A DNA stretch of 64,000 nt from Sporopachydermia quercuum (Eukaryota): assembly GCA_001599295.1 (NCBI GenBank), contig BCGN01000001.1, positions 806,001-870,000 on the forward strand, read 5' to 3'. The stretch's first letter is position 1, and every line of letters starts with the position of its first letter. Shown in pieces: positions 11,940 to 64,000 of this stretch. The position numbers were made by a program, and so were the translations under genes. The notes under the pieces were generated by a model. It was not told where the DNA came from, searched no databases, and saw only the letters and a list, made by a program, of their open reading frames with translations.

Positions 11940-14900
11940 ATGGGCGCTCCTATGAAAGGTATGTTGTTGATTTTATGGATTGAAATGATGTTCAAAAATT
12001 TTTGGAATGCTTGGAATTCCGGCCAAATTATTGATGAATAGAGATAAGTAAAATTAGTGTGCTAACTGTCATGACAGGTTTAGTACAGTTTATCGCGGAT
12101 ATAAGGAATGCAAAAGTAAAAGAGGCGGCAGAGAAAAGAATACGATTGGAATTGACGAATATTCAAAAGCACTTTTCAGCAAAATCGATCTCAGGATATC
12201 AAAAAAAGAAATATGTCTGTAAATTGCTATACATCTACATTCTAGGGTATCCTATTGAGTTTGGTTATATTGAATCGATCTCATTACTTTCATCGAATGT
12301 TTACTCGGAGAAGCAGATAGGGTACCTTGCTATTTCTTTACTCTTGAATGAGAAAAATAACCTGATTCACTTGGTTATAAATTCTATATCTAAAGATTTA
12401 AACGCTGACAACGAAGAATTCAATGTTTTGGCTCTTCATTGTATAGCAACTATTGGCGGTTCAACAATGGGTGAAATATTCATGGAACCAGTGTACAATC
12501 TCCTAAAATCACCGGTTTCAAGCCCATTGATAAAAAAGAAAGCGGCATTAGCGTTATTATGTTTATTCAGAAACGATCCAAGCAGATTCCCTGCTGAATG
12601 GATTCATAGAGTTATATCATTTATTGATGATCCTGATTTAGGTATTGCAACATCAGCGGCCTCTTTAGTTATAGGATTGCTTGATCAATCAAACCTGATT
12701 GAACCTTTTGCTCCTTGCTACTCTTTGGCAGTGAAAAGCCTGTCAAGAATTGTTCTTGATAAACAATATCCTAAGGAATATGAATACTATTCTATACCAT
12801 GCCCATGGCTTCAAGTTAAGCTATTCCAAATTCTTCAATACTTGGACAGACCGAATGATGATAGCATTTACAATAGTTTGATTCAAATTGTTGTCAAATC
12901 ACTGAATACCAATGTTAGACCTACAGACAACGATCAGCAAGCACATGCCCAGAATTCGATCTTATTTGAAGTTATCAGTTTAGCTATCAAGCTAGACATA
13001 AACACCACAACTATGGATAAAATAGTCAATGCATTAGGGGGATTTTTAACATCAGCCCAAACTAATGGAAGATATTTAGCGTTAGATGCATTGTGCCATG
13101 TCACAACTCAATACGAGAAAAACGTGATTGGTATAAGGGAATTTTTGCCTTCTATAGTAGCATTATTGAAGGATAGAGATATTTCTATTAGAAGAAAATC
13201 GTTAGAGCTTCTATACTGTATCTGCGACTCTACCAATTTAGAGAAAATTGTCGGTGAGTTAATGAAATATCTGGAGTCTTCTGACTATTCCATTAGAGAA
13301 GATTTAGTTATAAAAATTGCTGTGTTAGCTGAAAAATACGCATCAGATTATCAATGGTATGTCCATACCATTTTGAAGCTCATCTCATTGGGTGGCAATC
13401 ATATAACGGACGATGTGTGGGAAAGAGTTATACAGATTGTAGTTAATAACGAATCTATTCAAGTGTACTTCTTGAAAATGATCCTTCAGTATTTAAAGGC
13501 TTCCAGCACTAAGCCTGTTCACGAGATTATTATTCGAATGGGAGCTTACGTATTAGGTGAATATGGACACTTGGTAGTTGACCTTAAAGGATCTGAACCA
13601 ATGGATCAGTACTTGATATTAGCAGAGCACTACCCATTCGTTTCTATTGCAACCAAAGTTATGATGTTGACAGCCTTCGTAAAATTCGCCAATCTGTACC
13701 CCGATATAAGAAACCAATTGGTCCTCTTCTTTGAAACTCAAACAGATAATTATGATTGCGAAATTCAACAAAGATCGTTTGAGTATCTGAACTTGATCAA
13801 ATTTGGAGAATCCTATCCAGAATTCATTGCTACTGTTTTGGAAGAAATGCCACCATTCCCAGCTAGAATCTCTCCTTTGTTAGCCAAACTTGAAACTTCA
13901 AGATTGCAAAGAGATAAAACAATAAGGAAGAAATCTGTTGTTGCCAAAGATCTTGACTTCAGCAATATAACCAGAAGAAATGCAAGCAGTGCAAGCTTGA
14001 ATACTCGGCGAAGGCGGTCATCTGAGTTTAATGGTAACAATGGTGGTGCCAACTCTTATGCTGGCGCATCAAACGCTCCACCAACTTCTTCCTCTTCTCC
14101 AACAAAAAAACTTGTACCCCAGTTCACAGGGTCTACTTCAACGTTTATGACAGAACAAGCTGGGGGCTCCTCTTCTAGAGCCAGTCCACCACCTGTTCCT
14201 GCAATACCTTTAACTGCCAATTGGGAGCAGGGTTACTATCGTTTAGCTCATTTCTTATCAGGAGTGTTTTTTGAAAACTCGTTAACAAAGATCCTTCTAA
14301 GAACTGAATACTCCGGTGACACAGGGTACATCACTATTGATTTTCTAAATAAAAGTCCTAGTGCTATGAACTCAGTATACTCTGAAATTACTGTTCCTTT
14401 TATCAAGTTAATTGAAAACTCGGAAGAAAGATTTATTCCTTTGCAAATAACAACTGAAAAATCATTAAGTGCTGAGGTACCTATCAAATCAAGGACAAGC
14501 CAAGTTGTAAAAGTTACTGTGAATAGACCTTATGATAATCCACCTAGGATTCGGTTCTCTTTCATGTCAGGTATTCTTAGTACGATTGATCTAAAGTTAC
14601 CGATTTTGCTGCACAAGTTTTTGAAGCCAACGCCATTAAATGCAGAAGAATTCTTCCGGAGATGGAAGCAAATTGGTGCTGAGAATGGTCGACAATTCCA
14701 GCAAGTATTCAGAAGTAAGAGTAAGCTGAATCATCAAACCAATGAAAGAATGATGACATTAATGAATTGGGGAGTTTGCAGTAATGTCGATAAATCTCCT
14801 AATGCCGTTGTCGGAGCAGCATTATTGAAAACAGCCAAAGGAGGAACTTTTGGATGTCTATTAAGGTTAGAACCAAATGATAGTTTTACGGTAAGTATTG

Positions 14901-24655: not shown

Positions 24656-25984
24656 TTCTACTTCTCTTGCTTATGCCTAGTGTAACTGATTTTGCTATAT
24701 TCTATTTGACTTTTAAGTATACAATTGTTTAACATTAGACTATTCATCTGCTCAGTTATGTACGCATCAGAATATCAATTGTTTCGCCTCGTTATCGTCC
24801 AAGTTCTTATCTTGCTTTTCTCGAAACATTACAAATATCTTTTCCAGAAGGTCAATTATTATCACTACATAAGCATTCAGGTGCCCTAATCATATTTCAT
24901 ACCTCAAGCCGAAGGAACAAAGTGAGCTCGACCGAATGTATTAGAATAACGGAATAAATAACAAAAGGTTTAGATAAAAGTGGGGATTAAGTTTGTCTCA
25001 ATACAGGTCGAGTGATTTGTTATCGAGTGGTGATAGGAACAGCAATTGGATCAGTTTATAAATATGAAATAAGTAATGAAAGAAAGCTTTGTCAATTGAT
25101 ATATATAACTAGAAGCTGTTAATGTCAAGTTTGTAATCTTGCCCAAGGAATTGTAGCTCTTATATTGGTATTTCGGTATATAATAGTTTTATACACGTAA
25201 TGGAGAACAGAATTCAACTGCTCGATACATTTTGTTAAACCTATCATCTTTTCCAAACATAGCAAATGCATAGTTAAAGCGGCAACCAAGTTAATTTTTT
25301 GGCTGTGCTACTAGCTATTTCTACTATTTCTATCCAATACTTTCATATGAAACCCATGAATATGCATATTTTATCCCATCGTTTTTCTTCCTTTCATCTC
25401 CCATCCTCGCTCACTCCAAGTCCCATTTTAACATTAGAGTTTGAGCAAACGTATTTAGGCATAAGATTTTGCGGGGTTTCCTAATCTTACTTCTCATTTA
25501 GTTAATCGTATCTCAAAACAGAAGTTTCTAAACTTTAAATAGTAACTAACCAAATCTTAGAGAGAAGAAAGCAAATTGATGAAGGACATTACTCACTACA
25601 GATATGTTTGGTTGATCAATGATCAGATGAAGCCATTATGACTGCTTGGCAGTAAGATACAATACTCTTTTATGTGTTGAATGTATGAAACGCTTAGTTT
25701 ATCAATTGGTGAAGAACTACTCAACTAGGTCATCACTTACTAAAAGGTGCAAAACTTCTGTAAATGCATGTTCATAAACAAACAATAGCTTGAAAGGCCC
25801 TTAAACGTCACATAGTACCCTAAGAGGTTACGAGCTCTATTGCTTGAAATATTTTGCTACGTCTCATATACGAGATAGAGATAGCTATTTATACGGAGAT
25901 ATAAGCCTAATTGAGATACATCTACTCTGGGCATTCGTTCTTTTTGACGCTATCAGATTTTTTCTATGCACTAGAAAGACAAGT

Positions 25985-31554: not shown

Positions 31555-34176
31555 CTAAAAGCCTTCTAAACCATTGTTCTCATCACCATCCACATCAATT
31601 CTACGTTTACCATTAAGTCTCATTGCTGATATTTCCCGTTTACGCGTTTGATCTTTAACCTTCTTAGTCATTTTCTCAATTTCTTCTTCAGCATTAGTGA
31701 CATCTTGGTCAGCATATTGCATAATAAGTCTTCGACCTAACAAATGTGTACCAGTTAAAGATTTCATTGCATTCTCAGCATCCTTAGGAGTAACAAATTC
31801 AACAAATGCAAAACCACGAGCCGTCTTGTCGAATTTCTTGGGAACTCTAGCTGACTTAAGAGAACCAAATGTACCAAATAGTTGAACAATGTCTTTCCTT
31901 GTAGCCTCAAATGGTAAATTCTTAACAACAATCTTGGTCTTAGGTTTCTTATTGGAATTAGTATCATTAGAAGATCCATTGCCTTCACCCCTATGAGAAA
32001 TCTTGATCTGTAATTGATGTCCATCTAAAACATAACCGTCCATAGCTTTCATCGCGACAAATGCTTGTTGTTTAGTCTTAAACTCAACAAAACCAAATCC
32101 CATACTTAGTACATTTCCTTCCTTCTTAGGATTAGCTTTTGTCTTGATGCTAGTAATGACAAAACCATCCAAAGTTTTGAAAAGATCTGTGAGTTCTTTG
32201 TTGGTAGTCTTGAAATTCAAGTTCTTGACAAACAAAGATGTAGTTGTTCCAGTCTCCTCGGGTGTGTCTTCTTTCTCATTTTCCCTTCCACTCTCCAGTA
32301 GATCTTCTGCATTGGCCTTGACCACTTTGACATCCTCTTTCTTACCATCTTTACTAGTAAATCCGTCATCTGATGATGCCTCTTTGCTGAACAGATCTGC
32401 AGGGCCTTTTTCTAAGTAAAGAATAGACGTTTTAAATCTTCTATAAGCTAGTTTTGAAAACGCTGCTCTGGCTTCTGGTAAATTTGCGAATTCAACAATA
32501 GCTATGGTACCAGCCGGTGGCATCAATAATCTCTTGATTGTTCCATATTGAACAAACAACTCACCAAGCTCTTCAACAGTGGTTCCATATGGGAAATTCT
32601 TCACGAGGATGATATTATCACTTCTTTCCTTCTTTGAGAAACTATCAAGATCAACGCCTTTCTCTTCGAAATATGATCTGACATCATTGATAACTGATGC
32701 CTCTGATAATGCTTGTTGAACAGCAGAGTTAGCTGATTGAGCATCTAATAAATCTGATTTTTTCACTCCCATTTTAGCAGCAACGGATTCCATAACAGCA
32801 TCCTGATTCATATAAAGAGAGTTCCAGCTGAACTGCTGTTTTGAAGCTTGGAACTTTCGTTTTAACTCTATTTGTCTTTTGAGGGGTAAATTCTTTAAGT
32901 CGAAATCACTAAGCTTTTTCATTTCACTTCGTTTTTTATCACCAGGAAGGATATGCAATAATCTCCCTTGAAAAATCTGTTTATCTAAGCTTAAAAACGC
33001 TTGACATGCGTCATCATGATCTTTGAAAAGTGCATAAACAAATCCCTTCGGCTTGTTCTTTTTTGGATCAACAGGCATATGAACCTCTTCTAACTCACCG
33101 TATTTTGATAATAGGCCTCTGAAATCATTTTCAGTGGCATGATAATCGATATTTCGTATGAAAAGACGTCCCGTTTCACTAATTTTCTTCAGAGCTTTGT
33201 CCTGTTCTGTTTCTTGTGGAATGAATTCTTCTTCATCTTGTTCCCTATCACTACTATTTACCCGTCTTATGGTTTTCCCTGATACCGCACTTTCATTAGC
33301 TTCCCTCGTATCATCCTCACTATTTTCGTCTCCTTCAGTATTGGTTCCATCTTCTTTTATGAGTTTCCGTCTCAGTTTAAGCCATTCAAAATCAGATACT
33401 GACTCATCAACTTTGTTCCCCGTTCCCTCTGCACTATCATCCTGTTGTTCCTTTTCAGGAATGTCACTCAATTTTATGAATTCTTCTTTGTTATGATCAC
33501 TATCATCATCTGCTTCATCCTTGTTTTCAACACCTTTACCAGGAACGAAACTCGAGTATTCATCATCACTGTCAGCGTCTGGCAATTTAAGCATATCATC
33601 ATCATCATCATCATCATTATCATTATCATTTTCAATTTCTGTCTGAAAAGTATTACTGGTTTCAACGCCAGCATAAACATCAATACCTTCGTCGTTGGCC
33701 CACGTTTTCATATTTGCTCTTGGTTGCATTATGTTCAAGAACTCCTTCAGCTTCTCATCTTTTGGTTCATTCTCCTGCGTGTCATTGCTTTTCTTATTTT
33801 TCTTCACTTTTTTACTTTTCAGTTTTTCTTCCATTCGTTGTAATTTTTCTTCTGTGGCAATCTCAGCTTCACGTAGCCTCTTCTTCCTTTCTGACCACGG
33901 CACAGGAACGCTGCTACTAGCAAAGGATTTTGCTAATTCCACTTCTATCCTGGCTGTATCAATGAAACTTTTATTGAAGAATTTGCAAGCACTTTTAGCA
34001 TCATCTTCTGATCTAAATCCTAAGAATGCAAACCTTCTAGATACACCTTCTTTGTTTGTTTTCAATTGTACATCTGTAATTTTCCTCTCATCATATCCGT
34101 TCTTCTGAAAATGCTCTTTGAGCTTTTCCTCCGTAAGATATATGGGAATGTTCTTTACAATGATCCGTGAAGACAT
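31555..34176 (-). CDS. MRD1: Multiple-RRM 40S biogenesis factor Mrd1 (RBM19)
   Basis: Start MSSRIIVKNIP (ATG at 34176); five RRMs; WNSLYMNQDAV, LLMPPAGTIAIVEF and KIVVKNLPFEA. Confidence 0.96.
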   Translation of the reverse strand: MSSRIIVKNIPIYLTEEKLKEHFQKNGYDERKITDVQLKTNKEGVSRRFAFLGFRSEDDAKSACKFFNKSFIDTARIEVELAKSFASSSVPVPWSERKKRLREAEIATEEKLQRMEEKLKSKKVKKNKKSNDTQENEPKDEKLKEFLNIMQPRANMKTWANDEGIDVYAGVETSNTFQTEIENDNDNDDDDDDDMLKLPDADSDDEYSSFVPGKGVENKDEADDDSDHNKEEFIKLSDIPEKEQQDDSAEGTGNKVDESVSDFEWLKLRRKLIKEDGTNTEGDENSEDDTREANESAVSGKTIRRVNSSDREQDEEEFIPQETEQDKALKKISETGRLFIRNIDYHATENDFRGLLSKYGELEEVHMPVDPKKNKPKGFVYALFKDHDDACQAFLSLDKQIFQGRLLHILPGDKKRSEMKKLSDFDLKNLPLKRQIELKRKFQASKQQFSWNSLYMNQDAVMESVAAKMGVKKSDLLDAQSANSAVQQALSEASVINDVRSYFEEKGVDLDSFSKKERSDNIILVKNFPYGTTVEELGELFVQYGTIKRLLMPPAGTIAIVEFANLPEARAAFSKLAYRRFKTSILYLEKGPADLFSKEASSDDGFTSKDGKKEDVKVVKANAEDLLESGRENEKEDTPEETGTTTSLFVKNLNFKTTNKELTDLFKTLDGFVITSIKTKANPKKEGNVLSMGFGFVEFKTKQQAFVAMKAMDGYVLDGHQLQIKISHRGEGNGSSNDTNSNKKPKTKIVVKNLPFEATRKDIVQLFGTFGSLKSARVPKKFDKTARGFAFVEFVTPKDAENAMKSLTGTHLLGRRLIMQYADQDVTNAEEEIEKMTKKVKDQTRKREISAMRLNGKRRIDVDGDENNGLEGF
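33595..33629. repeat. (TCA)n trinucleotide microsatellite encoding the Asp/Asn tract of Mrd1
   Basis: atcatcatcatcatcatcatcattatcattatcat is read as NDNDNDDDDDDD on the minus strand. Confidence 0.8.
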
Positions 34177-34340
34177 TTTTTTCTCAGTATTGCTGATCAC
34201 ACTGTTGGTTAGTTGAGCAGATCACATATATAATACAACCAATGCTGAAATGTATAACTGTCGTGATGATACTTTCTTAGCTGCTAATGTATAACTATTA
34301 ATCTTTGATCACTAACAGAAATCTTTCCCTTCTTAATAAT

Positions 34341-34352
34341 TAAAATTTTTTC
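34341..34352. promoter_or_regulatory. RRPE element upstream of MRD1
   Basis: TAAAATTTTTTC (GAAAAAATTTTA on the gene strand) about 165 bp upstream of a ribosome-biogenesis gene. Confidence 0.55.
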
Positions 34353-34721
34353 TATACTATGATGATGTCTCATAACAGGGTAATTAAATGATTATTGATA
34401 ATCTGTCCCATTATAGGGCAAAATGTGTGCTCTTATCAATCATTATCACAAATTCCTTTTCAGGTAATACTACCGGAACAAAATGATAATCAATTTGTGT
34501 AAGAATTGAAAGGGTGATTGATTATTTTAGAAGAAGAACGTTTTCCCACTCGTTGTTGCATTCTTTTTACTATGTTACTATAGGCAGTTAGTTGTATTAC
34601 AACAGACTATTTCAAGACGTATGTGCTATATATTGTACTCGTTAGTTAGAACAACGGTGTAGAATATCTCTATGATAATCACATTTCGTAGGGGTTTTCA
34701 GGATTTTCTTCTAATCAAATC

Positions 34722-36098
34722 ATGGAATGGCAATCAATCTGGGTAAGCATATTCTATCCTTATCCTGGATCAATACCCTATGTTTATCAACTAAAGGCAT
34801 ACATTGCATTGTTGGTTTTGCTGCTGGTGCTTGTTGTTTACCATTTTGTTTATCTGATAGTATATGGACTTTCAATTCTGGAGATTTCAATGGTTGGCAG
34901 ATGGGAATCTTTCAACGTGAAGTACTGGGTCGAAGAACAGTTCTGGAGATTGGGAGTATTATTGATGTCAAGAAACGATGTATCTATTACTGTAACTGGT
35001 GATGAAATTCAGGGAAACTCTGCTGTTCTACTGGCCAACCATTCGTCACTAATTGACTACTTTGTGATCTATTATGTGAAGAATTTGAGACAGCAAGCGT
35101 TGAATGATAGAACTATACAATTATCATTTTTCACATGGGCAGATATATGGAGAATACCAACAGTTAAGACGTTATATCATATCATTAGATGCAATGAAAA
35201 TTGGAACCTTTCAGAGGATGATTCTGGGAGTATTTTGCTGAGAGAAATGCTAACAATACCTAACAATGAAGCAAGAGGTCCAAAATTTGTCAATTGTAAT
35301 CATACCTTCCTTTTTTCAATGACAATAGTAGCAGTGTAACCGTGGGAGTAGACACGGACTATCTGATGATGATTGACAACTGATACTAATAGTAAATTAG
35401 GGATTGCTGTATACCCAGAGGTCAATATATGGACTGAAAGGAACTTTCATGAGGTAATTTGAAACCCTTAGTTTTATTTTAATGACATGACTCTAAATCA
35501 TTAACGTTTAACTCAAAAGCAACAATATTTTTGTCAGCAAAGATACCTACCAACATTTAACAAGCTACTATACCCAAGATTCTTATCATTGAATACCATT
35601 GTAAATGCGTTAGAAATTCAAAAACAACAGGAGTCAGTAGCTCTGAACAAATCATATATGAGAAACAAGTACGAGAGTCATAGACGTTTCTGGCACAGGA
35701 AATCAATTTCTGCAAATGATAATGTTCAAAATCATCCGAGTAATGAGGTTAAAGATACTCAAAAAGCAAAATTCTATCTCATTGGTATAACTTACACTGG
35801 TACTTATATAAGGAATTCAACACTCACAGAAGGGATAACAGGACTTGTTGATGATACCCCATTCACATCACCTTCTATTTTCGAAATCTTATGTTTAAGA
35901 GCAAAAGCAGACAAAGGTAGTTTACAATTAGGGAACATACAAATCAATGTTCATATTACTGATAAAACAGATGATGTAGATGAAGAAATATTTGCTCTTG
36001 GTAGAAAGATCAAACGGAGCGAATCAAGAAGGAAAAGAAGGGTAGAAAGGTGGCTAGAAAGAAACTGGCAAGAACATGACAGAATGTTGAGTAAATAA
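34722..36098 (+). CDS. MUM3: Mum3/Cst26-like lysophospholipid acyltransferase, 3 exons (34722-35295, 35401-35453, 35520-36098), about 401 aa
   Basis: NHSSLID (HX4D motif). Splicing yields FVN|WIAVYPEVNIWTERNFHE|QQYFCQQRYLPTFNKLLYPRF and a C-terminal VERWLERNWQEHD. Near MBF1 and RNA1, as in Saccharomyces gene order. Splice sites are non-consensus; an alternative in-frame acceptor CAG ends at 35537. Confidence 0.78.
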
Positions 36099-39460: not shown

Positions 39461-42400
39461 ATGGGCCTTTCATCGCATGTTAAGAGCAAGTTTGTTCAGG
39501 CTGTCAGTGATTCTCCTATTGAGATTCCTTCAAAAGTTTCCAACTTCACATCATCATTAATAGATAAGGCCGATAGGTTCATCAATATAAATCATCGTCA
39601 TGACGAAGAGCATGAAATAGTCGTAGATCTTGAAAGGGAAAAAGAGAAGAAAGCAAATCGTTTTTTGTAAGTTAAATCAACAGTTTGCTTTTATTTCAGG
39701 TGCTAGAGCAAGGCATGTGCAAGATTCAGTATTCTTGAACCGCTTTTGTTCGCTCCTCTTATCATCATCACTGCTAGTGAAAATCATTATTAACACAACA
39801 AACTAGATCATTCTGTCCTAGCACTGAAGGAAACAAATCCAAATGGTTTGCATGCGGTAAGTTCAATTTATACTATTATACTCTATTTATATTCATCATA
39901 ATACGCATAGATATGAATAATAAGTACAACTTATTAACCGAAGTACCTTGTTGTAGGCCATGACTATATGCTAGCTGTGGCAGACGCACTAGAATCAGCT
40001 CAAGATGAGATTCTAATTCTTGATTGGTGGTTATCACCAGAACTTGTACGTTGTTCAATTGCTTTTTGGTTTCTATGTATGATCATTTATAACGTAATAA
40101 CTCTAACATCATATAGTATCTGAAAAGACCTCCTGCATTAAATGAGAAGTGGAGATTAGATTATACGTTGGAAAGAGCAGCTAAAAGAGGAGTCAAGATT
40201 TATATCATTGTCTATAAGGAGGTTGAAAGCGCATTGCCATTGATTTCAGTTCATACTAAGCATTACCTTGAGAAGCTTCATCCCAACATTGTAGTAATGA
40301 GACATCCAAATCATACATTAGCTGAAGGTGTCAATATTACACTTTACTGGGCTCATCATGAGAAGCTATGCGTTGTCGATCGTCGTTTTAGTTTTATTGG
40401 TGGAATTGACTTATGTTTTGGCCGTTGGGATCTACACCATCATCCAATCAGCGACTTTGACTCTCAAGCTTCTTCTCTTGCTATTTCTGTTCCTAGAAAA
40501 GAATTTTCCAAGAAAAGGATCGCCAAGAAGATCTTCACCAGAAATAGTGCTAAGCAGTATGAAAAAGGTACCACTGAAAGTATCAGTGCCAGCTCTAAAG
40601 ACCAGAACGAATCCAGCGATTCAGAAAACGATTCGTATAGTTCGTCAGACGAAACTTACTCTGGATCCAATCAAGACACAATAGCTACTAAAGCTACCAG
40701 AGAGTTATTCTGGGGCCAAGATTATAACTCAGCAAGAATTCGCGACTTTGAAACCGTGAATAAACCTTACAACACTCAAACTATAGATCGAAGAGTTTAC
40801 CCTAGAATGGGATGGCACGATGTTGCATTTCAAGTGCAAGGACCTATTGTTGATTATTCTGTCCGTCATTTTGTTGAACGATGGGAGTTTTTACGTAGAT
40901 TCAAGTATTCTAAACGAAAGAAATATGTTTCACTGGCTAATCCTGAAGCCTTATCTCAGAAGTTTGATCAGCTGAAAGAAAGATACAATGAATTAATTCA
41001 TAGATCTGGTAATCCAGAATCAAGCCAAGCTGCCACTGATTTGAAAGGTAGCATGAAAGATAAAGTAGACTATCTAAAGAGCAAGATGAACCAGCTAACT
41101 GTTGACCAAGATGAGAAAGAAAGTGGCGGAAAGGATGAAGAGAAGAAAAGTAATGATACACCTGTTTTTGACAGTATTGATGATGATAAGGAAAATGCTA
41201 ACCAGGAGAAATTAACTGATGATATCGAAGATCCTTCTTTCATGAAAAAGATTACAAAGGATAATAGACATTTTCCTGATACTGTTCATCCAGTTGGTGA
41301 TCGTCATGAGATTGTTGGAACTGCTGACGTTCAAATGGTTCGTTCTGTTGGTGATTGGTCACATGGGTTTCTTCCTGAGAGATCTATTCAAAATGCTTAT
41401 ATTGAATTGATCAACCAAGCGAAACATTCTGTTTATATAGAAAACCAGTTTTTCATTGCTGGATCACATCAAATGGAGGATTTACCATTTGAGAATGAAA
41501 TCGGAGATGCACTAGTTACTAGAATATTAGTTGCAGCGAGAAGTAAAAAGAAATTTCGAGTGATTATTTTCATTCCTGCTATTCCTGGTTTTGCTGGTGA
41601 TTTGCAATCGGATGACGCTATTGGAACAAGAGCTATTATGAGTTTCCAGTATGCTAGTATTTCTAGAGGTGGATTAAGCATAAGACAAAGAATAGCTGCC
41701 GAGGGATTCAATCCTGATGATTATATAATGTTTTATTCTCTTAGGTCTTTCGATCGCATTAATTTCAATGGAACCGTTTGGAATTGTGATGATGTTTCCG
41801 AAACTGTGATGAAATATTCTGGAGCAAGCTTTGATTATAAAGTACCAGTCGAAGGCGATGTGGAGAAATGGAGAAAAGCAGGCATTACTAGTAAACCTCC
41901 TGGTGGAGTTGATTCTATTTCTATATCGGATACAGTACTAGCAGATGGTTCAAAATTATCTGATGAGGATTCCAAATATAAGTGGAGCAATAAAGAAACT
42001 GATGCCAAGCAAGAGAATTTTAGTTATGTCACTGAACAATTATATATTCATGCTAAGCTTTTGATTGTTGATGATGATATTGTCTTATGTGGAAGTGCTA
42101 ATATCAATGATAGAAGTCAGAATGGTAATCACGATTCTGAAATAGCAATTATTCTACAAGATAAAGATGATGTAGTTTCAATTACTGTTGACGGAGCTGA
42201 CACTAAAGTTAGCAGGATTGCATCATCATTGAGAAGATTTCTCATCAGAAAGCACTTGGGATATATCAAGCCTCAAATTATAACCGATGCTACAAGCAGT
42301 GAAGAATCTGACAAAGTGAATTATAAAGTAATGGTGTCACAGGAAAATTACGATTATGGATCAGAGCATGATAAGCTTGTGGTTGATCCTTTATGTGATG

Positions 42401-42708
42401 AATATTGGAATTTGATTCGTGATACTGCCGTTGAGAATGAGAAAGTGTACGAGAAACTATTCCATACAGTTCCTAGTAACAGTATATTGAATTGGTCTCA
42501 ATATAAAGCTTGGATAGGACAGGTACCAGTATATGGTCATTTAACAAGCGGACTATTAACTGGGGATTGGAATGACACAGTTAAGAAAGAACTTGATAAA
42601 ATCCAAGGGTTTGTTGTCCCATTTGCTTACGATTTCTTGAAAGAAGAACCCGAAATTGTACCAAAAGGTCTTACATACAATTCGGTTACTGAGAACATCT
42701 TCACTTGA
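39461..42708 (+). CDS. Phospholipase D with two HKD motifs and no PX/PH domain, 4 exons (39461-39666, 39807-39856, 39957-40045, 40117-42708), 978 aa
   Basis: Splicing gives [58 protein letters not shown] and HAKLLIVDD..GSANINDRS are present. Introns 39667-39806, 39857-39956 and 40046-40116 each have a donor, branch point and TAG. Confidence 0.92.
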
Positions 42709-51554: not shown

Positions 51555-52758
51555 ATGTTAGCCCGATTAAACGGACCAAATAGCAATGCTAGCATGCTCT
51601 CAAAACAATGCATCAGAGGTGTAGCTACAAGAGCTATCCCATTTATTCGGGGAGCTCCAGCTAAACCACCGAGGTCTGTTCGTGGTAATAGAACCACTTT
51701 ACAATACTATCTCAGCAGGTTCTTAGGGCCAAAGAACTACAAAGGTGAATACTATCTAAACAAATACTACTATCCCCCGCAAAACCATAAGCCTAACTAC
51801 TTGAATCCCGTTCGAGATTCTCACGATCCTTTACTCACCGAGTACAACATCAGTAAACAACAAGGAAAGTTCAAGAAGAGGTTCCCTACTAATCAACCTT
51901 TTCCTAATAATCCAAGCACGAAAACAAATGTGGTTGTTAGTGATCAAATGAAAAAGGAGATTCACGACAGAATAGTTAATAAGAAAGAGTCTGTTCCATC
52001 CGTGGCAAAGTTCTATCGTATGAAAATGCCTAGAATTGAAGGAATTGTGAAGTTGGTAGAAATAGAGAATGAATGGAAAGAAAATGTAAGTACTGCCTTG
52101 AATGACACTCTTTTTGGTTTTACAGATTACAAGAAACATTACTGGATGTTATAAAGATGAGACTAAATAAAAATAAACTTATGTTCGATTAGTCTTTAAG
52201 ACAACTACATGGTTTGAAATATTTATTTCTGATTTATTCGGCATGTTTTACCTGTTTTTCTGGAGAACGAAAAAGAACAAAACTTATGAATCAGCAACTA
52301 ACAGTTTATTCTAGGGAAAAATAACTCCTCAGCTTGAGATTTTCGCTGATACAATGAAGAAAATGTTTCCAATACACACACCATATTACACAGCTGAGAA
52401 TTTAACCGAAATTCCTACTCAGAAGGAAACCGAAAACACTGTTTTGTTGACCATTGCTGAATCAGAGCCTTTTGGACCTTCTGAAGCAGCTAAAGTGTAT
52501 GAGGTTGAAGAAGCAGCAACCACTCTTAAGCGTCTTACTGAAACGGGTACTCATTTAGATACCAAATCGGACGTCAAACAAGAAATTTACTATGGCCCTG
52601 TTCTTGAAGGTGAACGATCTGTTTTTAGATTTACCAAGGCTAAAGTTGGTAAAGTTGGTTTCAGATATGGTGCTTCTAGAGATGACACGAAGAAGAACAG
52701 AGGTGTGTATTTTGATAAATTCGGTAATTTGAAATATAGTGATCCTGTTAGTACTTAG
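51555..52758 (+). CDS. MRPS35: Mitochondrial small-subunit ribosomal protein mS45, 2 exons (51555-52085, 52315-52758), 324 aa
   Basis: FLGPKNYKGEY, PFPNNP.TKTN, RIEGIVKLVEIE, ESEPFGP and KVGFRYG. Intron 52086-52314 (GTAAGT/AACTAAC/TAG) joins the two ORFs in frame. Confidence 0.88.
52151..52237 (+). ncRNA. Probable intronic box C/D snoRNA in the MRPS35 intron
   Basis: Box C-like AAGATGA (52154-52160), box D CTGA (52229-52232), ATAAA/TTTAT terminal stem, and a 15-nt element GTTCGATTAGTCTTT complementary to conserved LSU rRNA AAAGACUAAUCGAAC. Confidence 0.78.
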
Positions 52759-58379: not shown

Positions 58380-60806
58380 CTTGGAAAACAATCCTCAGAG
58401 TTTTCAGTTGCAGCTTTGCAATTCAACAATTCAGAAAGGATCTTCTGATATTTTCTGTAGTTCCTTAACCGGTGTTTCTTTTATTCAATCAACCAAGCAA
58501 TCAGAGAATCTACTAGATGACCAATTGAGCGTTTAATAACAACAATGAAGTAACAACAGTAACAAATATTATAACAATACTAATTCAATCCATCAGTAGT
58601 TACCATTCGATTACAATACCCTGATTCTTCCAATTCAGTTGTTACTATATTTTTGTTATTTAATTCTAATTATATATACAATACAGATCTTGAAAATCAT
58701 CAATTGTTTGTCTTATTACTTGCTCGTGAGGTTAGTTATCTAACGGCAGGTTTGCTTTACTTCTCGGGGCAAAATTGGACAGCCTGTAAAAAAGGAGACT
58801 AATGATGAGGTAATCTGAAAATAGTAAGTTTATCGGAGAATTGCGGTGTAGACAGGTTGGAGGGAGTGCGAGAGACTGCAGAAATACTGCTGATGAGGTA
58901 AGGGGTATAATGGGACATGAAAGTTGCAAGATGGAGAGTGGGATAATCAATTGTTGGAGGACAGGGAAGGCTATTTAAGTAGATTAATATAGAATCAAGG
59001 GAGAGTATTATTGATAGTATGGTTGGTAGTAGCATTTGCTTGACAATGTGAGGTTTTGGAAAGAATAGCTAGGTTATTCAGATGCAATGTGAAGTATGAA
59101 GATGCTGATTCACATTGCAGATAATGGTGGGCATGAATCAATAATGGTTGATTGTTGGATTGTTCTTGAATAGCGTAGCGTTTTCTGTTGGTGTAGTAGA
59201 ATTAATAATCCTATCTTGGAGAGCAAAAATATTGAACATTATTTAAAGTTTCAATATAACAATCATGATGAAGACGAAGATTAATACGGTTGGTAGGCTC
59301 AACCATCATTTTAAACTCATTTATTCCAATAAAGTATAGTGGAAGCTAGGTTGGAATGGAGGGCCTAGCTAATGATGAGATGAGAAACTTGTTTTACCTT
59401 CTTGCTATTATGTGAAACGATTTTTTGAATGTCTCCCTATGCTTAAAAAGAAATTTGGATCCTTTCCTTACTCTCCTTATCGAACCCTACTCAAGAGATC
59501 ATCTTTTGATCCTATTTTTCAGGAAAGCAGGCTGACAACAACACTGAACGATTTCTCGTAGTAACTCTTTGAATCATTAAATGAGTCCACCAGCAGTAGT
59601 GAAAATATATCCTCTTCTATAAAGTTCCGATAAATGTTATCTTAGACAAGGAACTATCGATTCACCAACATATCTCCCAATTGAGCCAACATTTGGACAC
59701 ACATCTATGATTTCACTTATTGTGTTTCTAGCAAAGTTTCTCAATTGATTCTATACATAGAACGTACATTTTTTCGCTAGAAAAAGTCATAAACGACTGA
59801 TTGTTCAAATACGTGATAATCGTTGTATTTATCATCACGAGGGACTAAGCATCCCTTTCATCCACAATCTACTGTCAGTTATCGTCAGGGTCGAATTAGA
59901 GTCACATCCTTCTGTGTTCTAAAATATGCATTATTCCTGCAAAAAGTGGGGTAAATTTGCGATAGGTGCATCTGCATGCATTCCGTATAGGCAGAAATAT
60001 ATTTCATACCATACAACAAAAATGGTATAAACAATAAACAATTAACAGAAGCGTTGTTACCTTACTAAGAATAGTTGAGAAATGAGCAGGTATTTTTCAG
60101 GGTTGAATAGGAAATACTATTTGTTGTTTCAAGAATGAATAATGTTTCAAATAATCGCCCTTCCTCTCAAACCTTTTACTGACTGATTAACTGTATGCAA
60201 TTGGCATCTTAATGTAGGTAGTTCAATGGGACAATGGAGATTTGCTGACAAACAAGAGAACAATATTGTCTCACACTGTACGGTCAAAAAGCTAGAGAAA
60301 GAATAAGACGTTGTGAAATCAATCAATAAATTACATATTAGTTTCCGGAAAGAAACAGTTAAATAAGTCTAGATCTGACAAGACACTTCTAAGTTACTTT
60401 CATTCAGGAGTGAGTAACGTTTTCAGCAAATAGAATAATTGGCTTTACTCATTCTTAGCTAATGTATTACTTGCCGGGACTATGGCGGTAAGATATTTAA
60501 AGTTTGAAGATGGCTTTTTGACATTCCTTTAAAGCCAAAACGCTAATAAAGTTGAATCAACTGTACTACCAATTTGGGAATTGAGCATCAACTTTAAGCA
60601 TTAAAAGAAAGTCGATTATTCAATGGGAATAGCTACCAATACAGAATGGCAACGAATTTTCTTCATTAAATATAACATCATCGACCAGTCGATTATAGAA
60701 AGCAGTAATTTTATCTTTATCTAGAAAACTTATAATGCATTTGGTTTGCAAGATGAGTTCGCTAAAGTGACTCAAGATTCTGGTTTACAAAAACCACGAA
60801 TCGCTG

Positions 60807-60894
60807 AATCTGCAGCAAATATTAGAGTAGGGAATTAAGAATCAAGCCACTTTGGTTAATTCATAATTCCCTACTCTAATATTTGCTGCAGATT
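60807..60894. repeat. Perfect 31-bp inverted repeat forming an approximately 88-nt hairpin
   Basis: AATCTGCAGCAAATATTAGAGTAGGGAATTA (60807-60837) is the exact reverse complement of 60864-60894; the 26-nt spacer is also partly paired. Confidence 0.95.
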
Positions 60895-63800
60895 TTGAAA
60901 ACATAGAACCGTAAAATAACAATAGAAACTTCCCGTCAAATCAACCTCAGCTGGGAGAGAAAGATTCTTTTGAATCGTATGATATATTTCAGGGAATGCC
61001 AATATTTGTCATCAGAAGCTTCATGTGGTTTCATTGTTTCACAGAAGACAAAGGTCTTCAAATTCGTTCAAGCGGCCTTGTAGCTTCAAATGATGAAATG
61101 CTAGACTTGCGGAAAAGCCAGCAGAAGCATTACTAGTTTTCATAGTTAAGTAGAAGTTAACATACTTGAGTTAAGCTTCTACTATTCATCTTAAGTACTT
61201 ATATATATCATTGGTAGAAACAGTATATCACTGCTTCATACAAGACAGATATAGATAACTTGACTTTTATGCACGATGATATATCCTGGAGGTAAAATAA
61301 TGCTATGGAGTATTCAGATTATAGGACAGAACAATTAAACAGCAATTCCAATATCTTTACCACAATCTTTTAATGAAGAAAACTATTTAGCTTAATTATT
61401 TATAAATCATCGAAAATCATAAGAATTGTTATAGAAAATTGGACATTTATGCTTATTAATTCTGAAAGCCAAATGTTGCTACCCATTCACAAGACAGAAT
61501 AATTGGAAATGAATTCCGATAACTACAACGCCATTCTTCTTTTATCTGAAGTATTAATAACTCAATAACATACAAGAAAATCACTGTTCTTACAAGATTA
61601 TTGCAAATAATTTGGCTTTCATGCATGATAAATAATGCTGGAAGCATAAGATTGCTACCAAGCATACAATTTATATATCAAAGCAATCCAAGATTATCTC
61701 TAGAAATTGCAGGACTTTACTCACTATCCTTGTACTATAACAATAGAAAATTTTACTTTTTGAATTGTTAAATGTCATTGCTATTGAGTAATACAGAAAA
61801 TATTGAGAAGAAGTTCAAATTTCTTTCCATACAACGTTGCTCAAAGCGCATCATCTTCTTTAATTAAAATTTAGAGAAACCTCTTTTCATTGAGCAAGCC
61901 ACGAAAATATCATTAGTTGGTCTGAAATTATTTTGATCTCTTGTGGTCAAGGTATCATTTTATTTCGAACAATTCAGCATTGCGAATATACACAAGATCT
62001 TTCAATACTACCTCGCATGATAAAAATGACACTGTCCAGTTGGATTTCATCTATTCAACGACATAGCTTCAGGGGGTTCATAAATGACACTTTTTGAACT
62101 TTTTTACTTACCGGTAATTATTTTCGATCGCTCTAACTATTTTTTTTCCATATTTTCTAACGAGAGTATTGAATTCTCCTTTACAATTTGTTTATGGGTA
62201 ATAGAATCAGATCAAATAGGTATTTACTAGAATTCATTTGTGAGGAGTAGCCAATTGCCTTGTCAAATGGATTGTTACAGTGGTCTACTAATTGGTTTAA
62301 ATGATTGAAGTAGCTAAGGGGACATACTTATTGAGCCTATTGAACGCTCAGATCTAGTGAACAAATAGTGTAATAATTACTTCAAAGATCATCATACTTT
62401 TAGGATAGAATTAATGTTAACTATCCTTTGTAAAGGAGGTCGGATTTTCATTATTGTTCATGGCACCAAAAATCCCATAATCAAAATACCGGCTGAAAAA
62501 ACTCTGGAACTAAACTATTGAACATGGGGATGTTCACTACCGGATGCTCATCTATTTCTCATCTAAAAAACAAAAGTAAAAGACGTAAACAAAGCACTGC
62601 TTTCTATTTATTTCAAAAATGTTTATATTTGTTTTTCCAAGAACATTTGACAACCTATGAAAATTTCTCCTCCCTGGACTGAATTGTTTCCGCCAAATCA
62701 CATGAAATGAGAATAAAGTTTTCATTTTTCAACCTAACTTACATATATAAAAACGCTCTCTTGGTTAAGTTTTTATGAATAGCAAGTAACCCAAGTATAA
62801 GAAATATACAATGATACTGTTTTTTTCTTTTTTTCCTTCAAGCTCCTTCAATGTGCTATCTTTAACCTGAAGATAGGAACCAATCCATTTTCAACTTCTA
62901 TTTCTGCTTTTTCAAACTTGGTTAATGAACTAATTTCAAGAAGTAGGGAAAACTTACTTACAGTTCAACTAAAAATCAAACTAAATCAGACTAAAATTTG
63001 TCTTGACAGTCAAAGAATTAAACTTTCAAGACCGTTTTGATTATTTTACGATTTCTCACTACCAAATAGCTTTAAATTAGGTTCAACTGCATAAGACCTT
63101 AACTTTAATGATATTTGAAAAGCCTTCGGCTTGGTTCAGCATTTCAATAAGTAATTATGGTACGTAGCAATAAATCAAACAAGAACTAATTATTTTTTAT
63201 TTGATTTGCTTGACTAATCAATTATGTAATTACTGAAAAATTTTGTTGAGTGCCTTGAAATCGACGGTCGTTGAGAGCCAGTGAGGTTAAATAAACAATA
63301 AAGTTTCCCTGTCACATTTTCACACTTTCAATGATGATAATATTTACATCAGTTCATAGTAAAAAAAAAGAATAGAAAAGTAAGCTAAAGTTATGTTAAT
63401 CTAACAACATTATAATATTAGAAGTTGCAAGTTAATCTACAGATTACGAACTAGTCATGAGGGGTTTCGTTGTTGATCACACTGAGCTGCTGATTATTAT
63501 ATCAACCTGTTACAATGAACTTTATGAAATACAGATATTTGAGTCATCGTTGTTTCTCCACAAACTATTCATTTCAATTAAAAGGGTGAAAAATCCGTTT
63601 TTAATTCAATTATTTACTCTCAAGTTCCGATCAAAGCACTCCCAGTCTCTCTAGAGATCCGGAATTTTAGCGTACTTTTGATAGAACCCTCAGAAATTGC
63701 ACTTAGCTAAATCAGTATAAATAATTGGATTTTCCGGTGTCTTCAAGATTTCCGAAGTTCCTACAGTCAGACTTCCTTTTTGCTCCAAGGAGAAAGAGCA

Positions 63801-64000
63801 TGTTTTGAGGAGAGTTGAAGAAAGAGGCTCATTGCCAAATTCAATTATTAGATATTGCTCGCTTTATAAGAGATCTTTACATTTAAACGGTTGCGAATAG
63901 GAATCAGTTCAAGAGAAGAATTTAGTTAACATCTAAAAGTTTCTCTCACCGTTTACCAGTTATTTTTTAAGTTTCCTTGCGCAGTCCGATACCTATTACA

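Follow-up and report, generated by a model that had tools for sequence, protein, structure and literature searches.

To our knowledge, almost everything known of regulated splicing in budding yeasts comes from Saccharomyces cerevisiae, where Mer1, a KH protein that contacts RNA through Arg214 and Gln243, controls four introns. The four Mer1 targets pair a non-consensus donor with the enhancer AYACCCUY, and in AMA1, MER2 and MER3 the enhancer sits at most 25 nt from the donor (PMC3082912). Non-G5 donors, such as the GUAUAU of SPO22, make S. cerevisiae introns dependent on Mer1 and Nam8, and neither factor is needed any longer once a consensus donor is restored (PMC3082912). The CCC core of the enhancer is intolerant of G substitution; the CUC and CCU variants of SPO22 yielded 85% and 89% splicing with Mer1, respectively (PMC3082912). 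Because KH domains homologous to Mer1 have been aligned from Debaryomyces hansenii and Pichia pastoris (PMC3082912, Figure 5 legend), a Mer1-related factor is plausible, by analogy, outside the Saccharomycetaceae. Searching the literature, we found no study of Mer1 targets outside Saccharomyces and no title on the splicing of yeast MUM3. The MUM3 family itself consists of lipid-droplet proteins that the walls of ascospores and chlamydospores require for their chitosan layer (PMC8092133).

We analysed a 64 kb stretch of Sporopachydermia quercuum DNA (hereafter the window), which carries a three-exon MUM3-like gene on the plus strand (34722–36098). Exon 1 (34722–35295, 191 codons plus 1 base) encodes an acyltransferase H-x4-D motif (NHSSLID). 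No donor/acceptor pairing other than that of intron 1 (35296–35400, 105 nt, phase 1) links KFVN to WIAVYPEVN in frame. Given an acceptor at 35400, a GT ahead of the stop has to preserve the frame and supply the W of the conserved W-I/L-x-x-F/Y-P-E-V-N motif, and the one at 35296 alone does both. Exon 2 (35401–35453, 53 nt) encodes (W)IAVYPEVNIWTERNFHE and is followed by intron 2 (35454–35519, 66 nt, phase 0) and exon 3 (35520–36098), which includes the TAA stop (36096–36098) and has the RxxxERWLExxW..D family tail at its end. Exons 1 and 3 are open over 191 and 192 codons, and splicing yields a product of 401 residues that is free of internal stops. When intron 1 is retained, an in-frame TAA at 35337–35339 ends the open reading frame (34692–35339), so the claim of the initial annotation that retention halts translation at 35339 was correct; read-through into intron 2 meets a TGA at the third codon. 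Both introns thus need to be removed to make the enzyme, and keeping either leads to an early stop before or within the catalytic region.

The 3′ end of intron 2 offers two in-frame acceptors, an AAG at 35517–35519 and a CAG at 35535–35537, 18 nt downstream, the use of which would remove 6 residues. The AAG, already annotated as probable, is preferred because it keeps the family spacing between PEVN and YPRF without a gap relative to 14 aligned homologues, whereas the CAG form breaks the spacing of all 14. The tandem AAG and CAG (35517–35537) lie behind two overlapping branch candidates and could yield isoforms that differ by 6 residues beside PEVN.

What is this gene? With exon 1 as query, Pfam returned PF01553 at an E-value of 0.0016, below the curated cut-off. 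A word-based search of exon 1 against longer proteins gave no match, but a full HMMER search found 37 representatives at E≤0.001, the best at 2.4e-20. Ten of the 37 were looked up (Candida verbasci, Scheffersomyces, Komagataella, Candidozyma, C. zeylanoides, C. jiufengensis and unnamed contigs) and were all CTG-clade yeasts, Komagataella or unnamed contigs. A family profile built from 11 of these representatives retrieved 107 proteins, including Lachancea “Mum3p”, Eremothecium “Mum3p” and Zygosaccharomyces “MUM3 (YOR298W)” at about 1e-30 to 1e-34, and the alignment of the spliced product with 14 homologues spans the full length. The window protein departs from the 11 relatives at several otherwise invariant columns, at which the Saccharomycetaceae Mum3p proteins depart as well. 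Consistent with membership of this family, the C. dubliniensis MUM3 primers printed in PMC8092133, when translated by hand, encode the same N-terminus and motifs as the window gene.

The genomic neighbourhood points the same way. An MRD1-like gene (31558–34176, minus strand; five RRM matches, Pfam RRM_1 E-value 5.5e-68) is the divergent neighbour of the MUM3-like gene, and in all seven metagenome loci that we recovered, tblastn found MRD1 upstream of the MUM3 relative in the same divergent orientation as in the window. From the profile matches to proteins named Mum3p together with the head-to-head MRD1 synteny, the gene at 34722–36098 is the positional orthologue of MUM3; with the full-length alignment, these data bear out the identity that had been proposed. 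By analogy with S. cerevisiae and C. dubliniensis, it would encode a lipid-droplet O-acyltransferase-like protein with a role in the spore wall of this yeast. The window's clathrin heavy chain is 58–65% identical to each of the best 120 hits listed, which span Nadsonia, Komagataella, Lipomyces, Saitoella and filamentous ascomycetes, and the source yeast belongs to a deep-branching budding-yeast lineage that has no close sequenced relative in the databases. The head-to-head MRD1-MUM3 arrangement (31558–36098) is common to a deep-branching yeast and to seven of seven CTG-clade-like metagenome loci.

We compared the splice signals of the two MUM3 introns with those of six control introns rebuilt within the window, each confirmed by an open spliced frame: one in an acidic ribosomal protein gene (RPP, 1131–1034, minus strand), one in APL3 (11959–12077), three in a phospholipase D (PLD) gene (39667–39806, 39857–39956 and 40046–40116) and one in BOT1 (52086–52314). 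The control donors are GTAAGT (four), GTATGT and GTACGT, all six with G5 and T6; their branch candidates, assigned by eye, all end in TAAC, and their acceptors are TAG in five introns and CAG in one. Intron 1 of MUM3 starts with GTAATC (35296–35301), which has neither G at +5 nor T at +6; its branch candidate TACTAAT (35384–35390) is the sole one among the eight introns to end in TAAT rather than TAAC, and its acceptor is the TAG ending at 35400. Intron 2 starts with GTAATT (35454–35459), just behind an exonic GAG, and offers an overlapping pair of branch candidates, CATTAAC (35499–35505) and GTTTAAC (35506–35512). Four of six MUM3 signals (two non-G5 donors, TACTAAT and AAG) are therefore deviant, compared with 0 of 18 in the controls (hypergeometric P of 15/10626, a hand calculation with branch points assigned by eye).

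Both MUM3 introns carry suboptimal splice signals, and the contrast that the initial annotation had drawn between their weak donors and the GTAAGT, GTATGT and GTACGT donors elsewhere in the window holds against all six controls. Its further claim, that the want of a canonical branch point weakens intron 2, did not survive the comparison, since TATTAAC seems to serve as the branch point of two PLD introns whose donors are GTAAGT; TTAAC-type branch points are normal in the window. The non-consensus donors would be expected to limit basal splicing of MUM3. The sample comprises eight introns, too few for the genome-wide frequency of GTAAT donors to be read from them. The PLD gene (39461–42708) is the most intron-dense gene of the window, with three short introns in its first 660 nt (donors GTAAGT, GTAAGT and GTACGT). 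The PLD family includes the S. cerevisiae sporulation gene SPO14.

Both weak donors are followed by a C-rich octamer. On direct reading, both positions and the single mismatch noted for each octamer proved accurate: ATACCTTC (35302–35309, plus strand) starts at +7 of intron 1 and differs from AYACCCUY in that the third C is U, and AAACCCTT (35462–35469, plus strand) starts at +9 of intron 2 and has an A at position 2, outside the AYACCCUY consensus. Both octamers start inside the 25-nt Mer1 zone, and section 17 of PMC3082912 describes no variant with A at position 2. Since the CCU variant was spliced at 89% in SPO22, ATACCTTC, and likewise the BOT1 octamer ACACTCTT described below, would probably work in the S. 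cerevisiae Mer1 system.

How often would such octamers arise by chance? Across the 64 kb, AYACCCTY with at most one mismatch occurs 58 times on the plus and 62 times on the minus strand, one of these matches being exact; the density is roughly one per kb on each strand, and composition would lead one to expect about 72 and 69 such matches. We then shuffled intron positions 7–40 in 20000 trials, requiring a match to start at positions 7–25. Both MUM3 introns matched in 11 of the 20000 shuffles. When the same rule was applied to all eight introns, three matched, and at least three did so in 5 of 20000 shuffles; the third match is ACACTCTT at +20 of the BOT1 intron, which has the consensus donor GTAAGT. 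The other five of the six consensus-donor introns are without the motif. BOT1, a mitochondrial-regulator gene, has no known link to meiosis. Thus, the MUM3 octamer pair is rarer than chance for a motif named in advance, yet motif, permitted mismatches and distance were all set post hoc. The motif class is over-represented near intron 5′ ends in the eight-intron sample, and weak donors are not its sole setting.

The same three introns also share the heptamer AATGACA, at +15 to +27 (35318–35324 in MUM3 intron 1, 35481–35487 in intron 2 and 52101–52107 in BOT1). It occurs 12 times on the plus strand of the window and, in BOT1, overlaps the near-enhancer ACACTCTT. Some 7-mer was common to at least three of the eight introns in 767 of 5000 shuffles and in 271 of 5000 random genomic sets, and the recurrence of AATGACA is of modest significance once all 7-mers are counted. 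For the AMPK-beta gene, we rejected a possible 5′ intron (GTAAGA as the donor, at 25652, then ATACTCTT), as the open reading frame's own MGNANS start looks, in our judgement, like the real N-terminus.

We looked for the MUM3 introns in relatives. A search for close relatives in metagenome contigs gave 50 pattern matches, none of which was confirmed. The seven distant metagenome loci (L001–L007) amount to four distinct sequences, L002–L004 being near-identical, and all four read openly straight across both intron positions of the window gene. Each has, instead, a single phase-0 intron close to codon 76 (L001:2663–2704, L002:2416–2497, L005:2449–2497 and L006:2732–2782), with the donors GTACGT, GTGAGT, GTATGT and GTATGT, where the window gene has no intron; that of L006 is 51 nt long, in frame and open. 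None of the four distinct codon-76 introns contains an octamer match, the sequences being distant orthologues that lack the window's two introns. Intron positions in the MUM3 orthologue thus differ between yeast lineages, as expected of intron turnover, and the readable relatives lend no support to enhancer-dependent splicing of MUM3. At L007 (1298–1777), the MUM3 frame shifts shortly past PEVNIW, near the position of window intron 2, unlike in the near-identical L002–L004; a frameshift, a misassembly or a variant would account for this break.

The promoter of MUM3 contains two matches to CACAAAT, at 34447–34453 on the plus and 34493–34499 on the minus strand. CRCAAAW, which we take to be the core of the middle sporulation element (MSE), has 17 matches in the 64 kb, 2 of them in the 545-nt MUM3 promoter, about 220–275 nt upstream of the start codon. 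The two MSE-like sites give mild support to a presumed sporulation-linked transcription of MUM3.

Several other features were examined and set aside. A common origin of the two MUM3 introns was rejected: their local alignment scored 18, and 239 of 2000 shuffles did as well, as did 298 of 3000 pairs of genomic segments that start with GTAAT. RNA structure hiding the splice sites was rejected as well, with z-scores of 0.42 for the 270-nt region and of 0.27 and −0.49 for the two introns, nothing beyond chance. We also dismissed U-rich tracts as a Nam8/TIA-1-type signal: at positions 7–36 the two MUM3 introns have T contents of 0.40 and 0.43, within or at the edge of the 0.40–0.57 of the six controls, a 13-nt pyrimidine run in intron 1 being the only standout. 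Across the window, no snoRNA or other RNA family and no tRNA was detected. A search for extra genes or introns in stretches poor in open reading frames gave Pfam matches for RPL13 and the acidic ribosomal protein only, among 146 short open reading frames. One stretch of 5.6 kb (58395–64000) is without any open reading frame of at least 90 codons, any Pfam match in short open reading frames and any tRNA or Rfam match.

How are the two introns best explained? At roughly even confidence, we read them as real but suboptimal, lineage-specific introns of the MUM3 orthologue, next to octamers that are coincidental or not specific to meiosis. The ordinary spliceosome would remove both, probably less efficiently than it removes the neighbouring introns, which we infer from their signals, and the introns would act at most as a throttle that tracks general spliceosome availability. 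Control during sporulation, if there is any, would then be mainly transcriptional, through the promoter with its two MSE-like sites. Three observations sit uneasily with this reading: (i) in each intron a C-rich near-enhancer, at +7 or +9, accompanies a donor that lacks G5, a pairing seen in 11 of 20000 shuffles; (ii) three of eight introns match, with at least three in 5 of 20000 shuffles, and in this lineage the motif class may have a function; and (iii) in S. cerevisiae, non-G5 donors mean dependence on Mer1 and Nam8, and the CCU enhancer variant is active (PMC3082912). Taken at face value, these observations could reflect a Mer1-type meiotic switch, in which a meiosis-induced, Mer1-related KH protein would bind the octamers and recruit the U1 snRNP, so that functional MUM3 mRNA would be made only in sporulation. 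Such a switch fits the concentration of weak signals in MUM3, where both donors are without the G5 found in six of six controls, and the placing of the octamers from +7 and +9, inside the 25-nt zone of AMA1, MER2 and MER3 (PMC3082912). It also fits the CCU variant of intron 1, which gives 89% splicing with Mer1 in SPO22; Mer1-homologous KH domains in Debaryomyces hansenii and Pichia pastoris, which suggest that the factor may predate the Saccharomycetaceae (PMC3082912); the 11 of 20000 shuffles in which both introns match; the action of the MUM3 family in spore-wall formation (PMC8092133); and the two MSE-like cores in the promoter. We nevertheless consider a meiotic switch unlikely. Neither octamer fits the consensus, and the A2 of intron 2 is absent from the variants described in section 17 of PMC3082912. 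The same match class occurs in BOT1 behind a consensus donor, and the readable orthologues have neither these introns nor the octamer; the BOT1 match and the relatives together argue against a putative dedicated meiotic switch. The C. dubliniensis MUM3 works in chlamydospores, that is, outside meiosis (PMC8092133). Finally, Pfam detected no KH domain among the 22 long and 146 short open reading frames of the window, a result that covers the window and is silent on the rest of the genome.

Alternatively, the octamers might belong to a general C-rich intronic enhancer, A-Y-A-C-Y-Y-U-Y, placed near intron 5′ ends and recognised by a component of the U1 snRNP or a constitutive KH protein of the poly(C)-binding type, with no meiotic role. 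The three matching introns, all with a match from positions 7–25 and with BOT1 and its GTAAGT donor among them (at least three in 5 of 20000 shuffles), point in this direction, as does AATGACA at +15 to +27 in the same three introns. We regard such an enhancer as rather improbable, however: the motif is absent from five of six consensus-donor introns, the sample is eight introns, a 7-mer is shared by at least three of the eight in 767 of 5000 shuffles and in 271 of 5000 sets drawn at random from the genome, and local alignment shows no similarity between the MUM3 introns beyond chance, 239 of 2000 shuffles scoring at least as well. A different possibility is that the boundaries themselves are wrong or variable, intron 2 using the CAG at 35535–35537 alone or beside the AAG, with an isoform shorter by 6 residues, or that the gene is decaying. 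The CAG lies behind a T-rich run, 26 nt past the second branch candidate, whereas the AAG, a poorer acceptor, is only 8 nt past it (distances by hand); both forms are in frame, and the protein differs from the 11 relatives at several otherwise invariant columns. Set against this, of the two forms only the AAG one matches the spacing of all 14 aligned homologues, no stop interrupts the 191 and 192 codons of exons 1 and 3, and the Saccharomycetaceae Mum3p proteins are likewise off the invariant columns, which makes wrong boundaries or decay very unlikely in our view. We likewise give little credence to the most far-reaching proposal, that a KH activator of the Mer1/PCBP type and its C-rich enhancer are older than the Saccharomycetaceae and control a late-acting lipid enzyme of the spore wall by way of two weak introns, each with an enhancer of its own. 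If an ancient KH activator did exist, there would be a meiotic splicing regulon with targets other than the four known in S. cerevisiae, and a second lineage that applies the same logic to a different late-acting gene would show that the mechanism is ancient and that its targets turn over. Were the octamers due to chance, the MUM3 locus would still be a clear case of intron turnover within one orthologue of conserved synteny, and its splice signals would still be much weaker than those of the neighbouring genes.

How does the locus compare with known systems? The protein belongs to the same family as MUM3 (YOR298W) and its Candida orthologue Cd36_82000, and the window shares the MRD1 neighbour with the CTG-clade loci; the readable orthologues have a codon-76 intron with a consensus donor, whereas the window gene has two introns elsewhere. 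Like the targets of the Mer1/Nam8 regulon (MER2/REC107, MER3/HFM1, SPO22/ZIP4 and AMA1), MUM3 combines non-consensus 5′ splice sites, some of which in the regulon also lack G5, with a C-rich element just behind the donor, a role in sporulation and a premature stop on intron retention. Unlike those targets, it has octamers one mismatch off the consensus and two introns in one gene, and it encodes a late spore-wall lipid enzyme rather than a recombination or APC/C factor; its host is far from Saccharomyces. Munding, in 2013, reportedly described a competition-driven improvement of weak-intron splicing. The ordinary-intron reading that we favour resembles this “hungry spliceosome” effect, in which weak introns are spliced better as ribosomal-protein transcripts fall in starvation or sporulation (PMC6726248). 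Unlike a Mer1 switch, such an effect would require no dedicated enhancer or factor to act on the two weak introns of MUM3.
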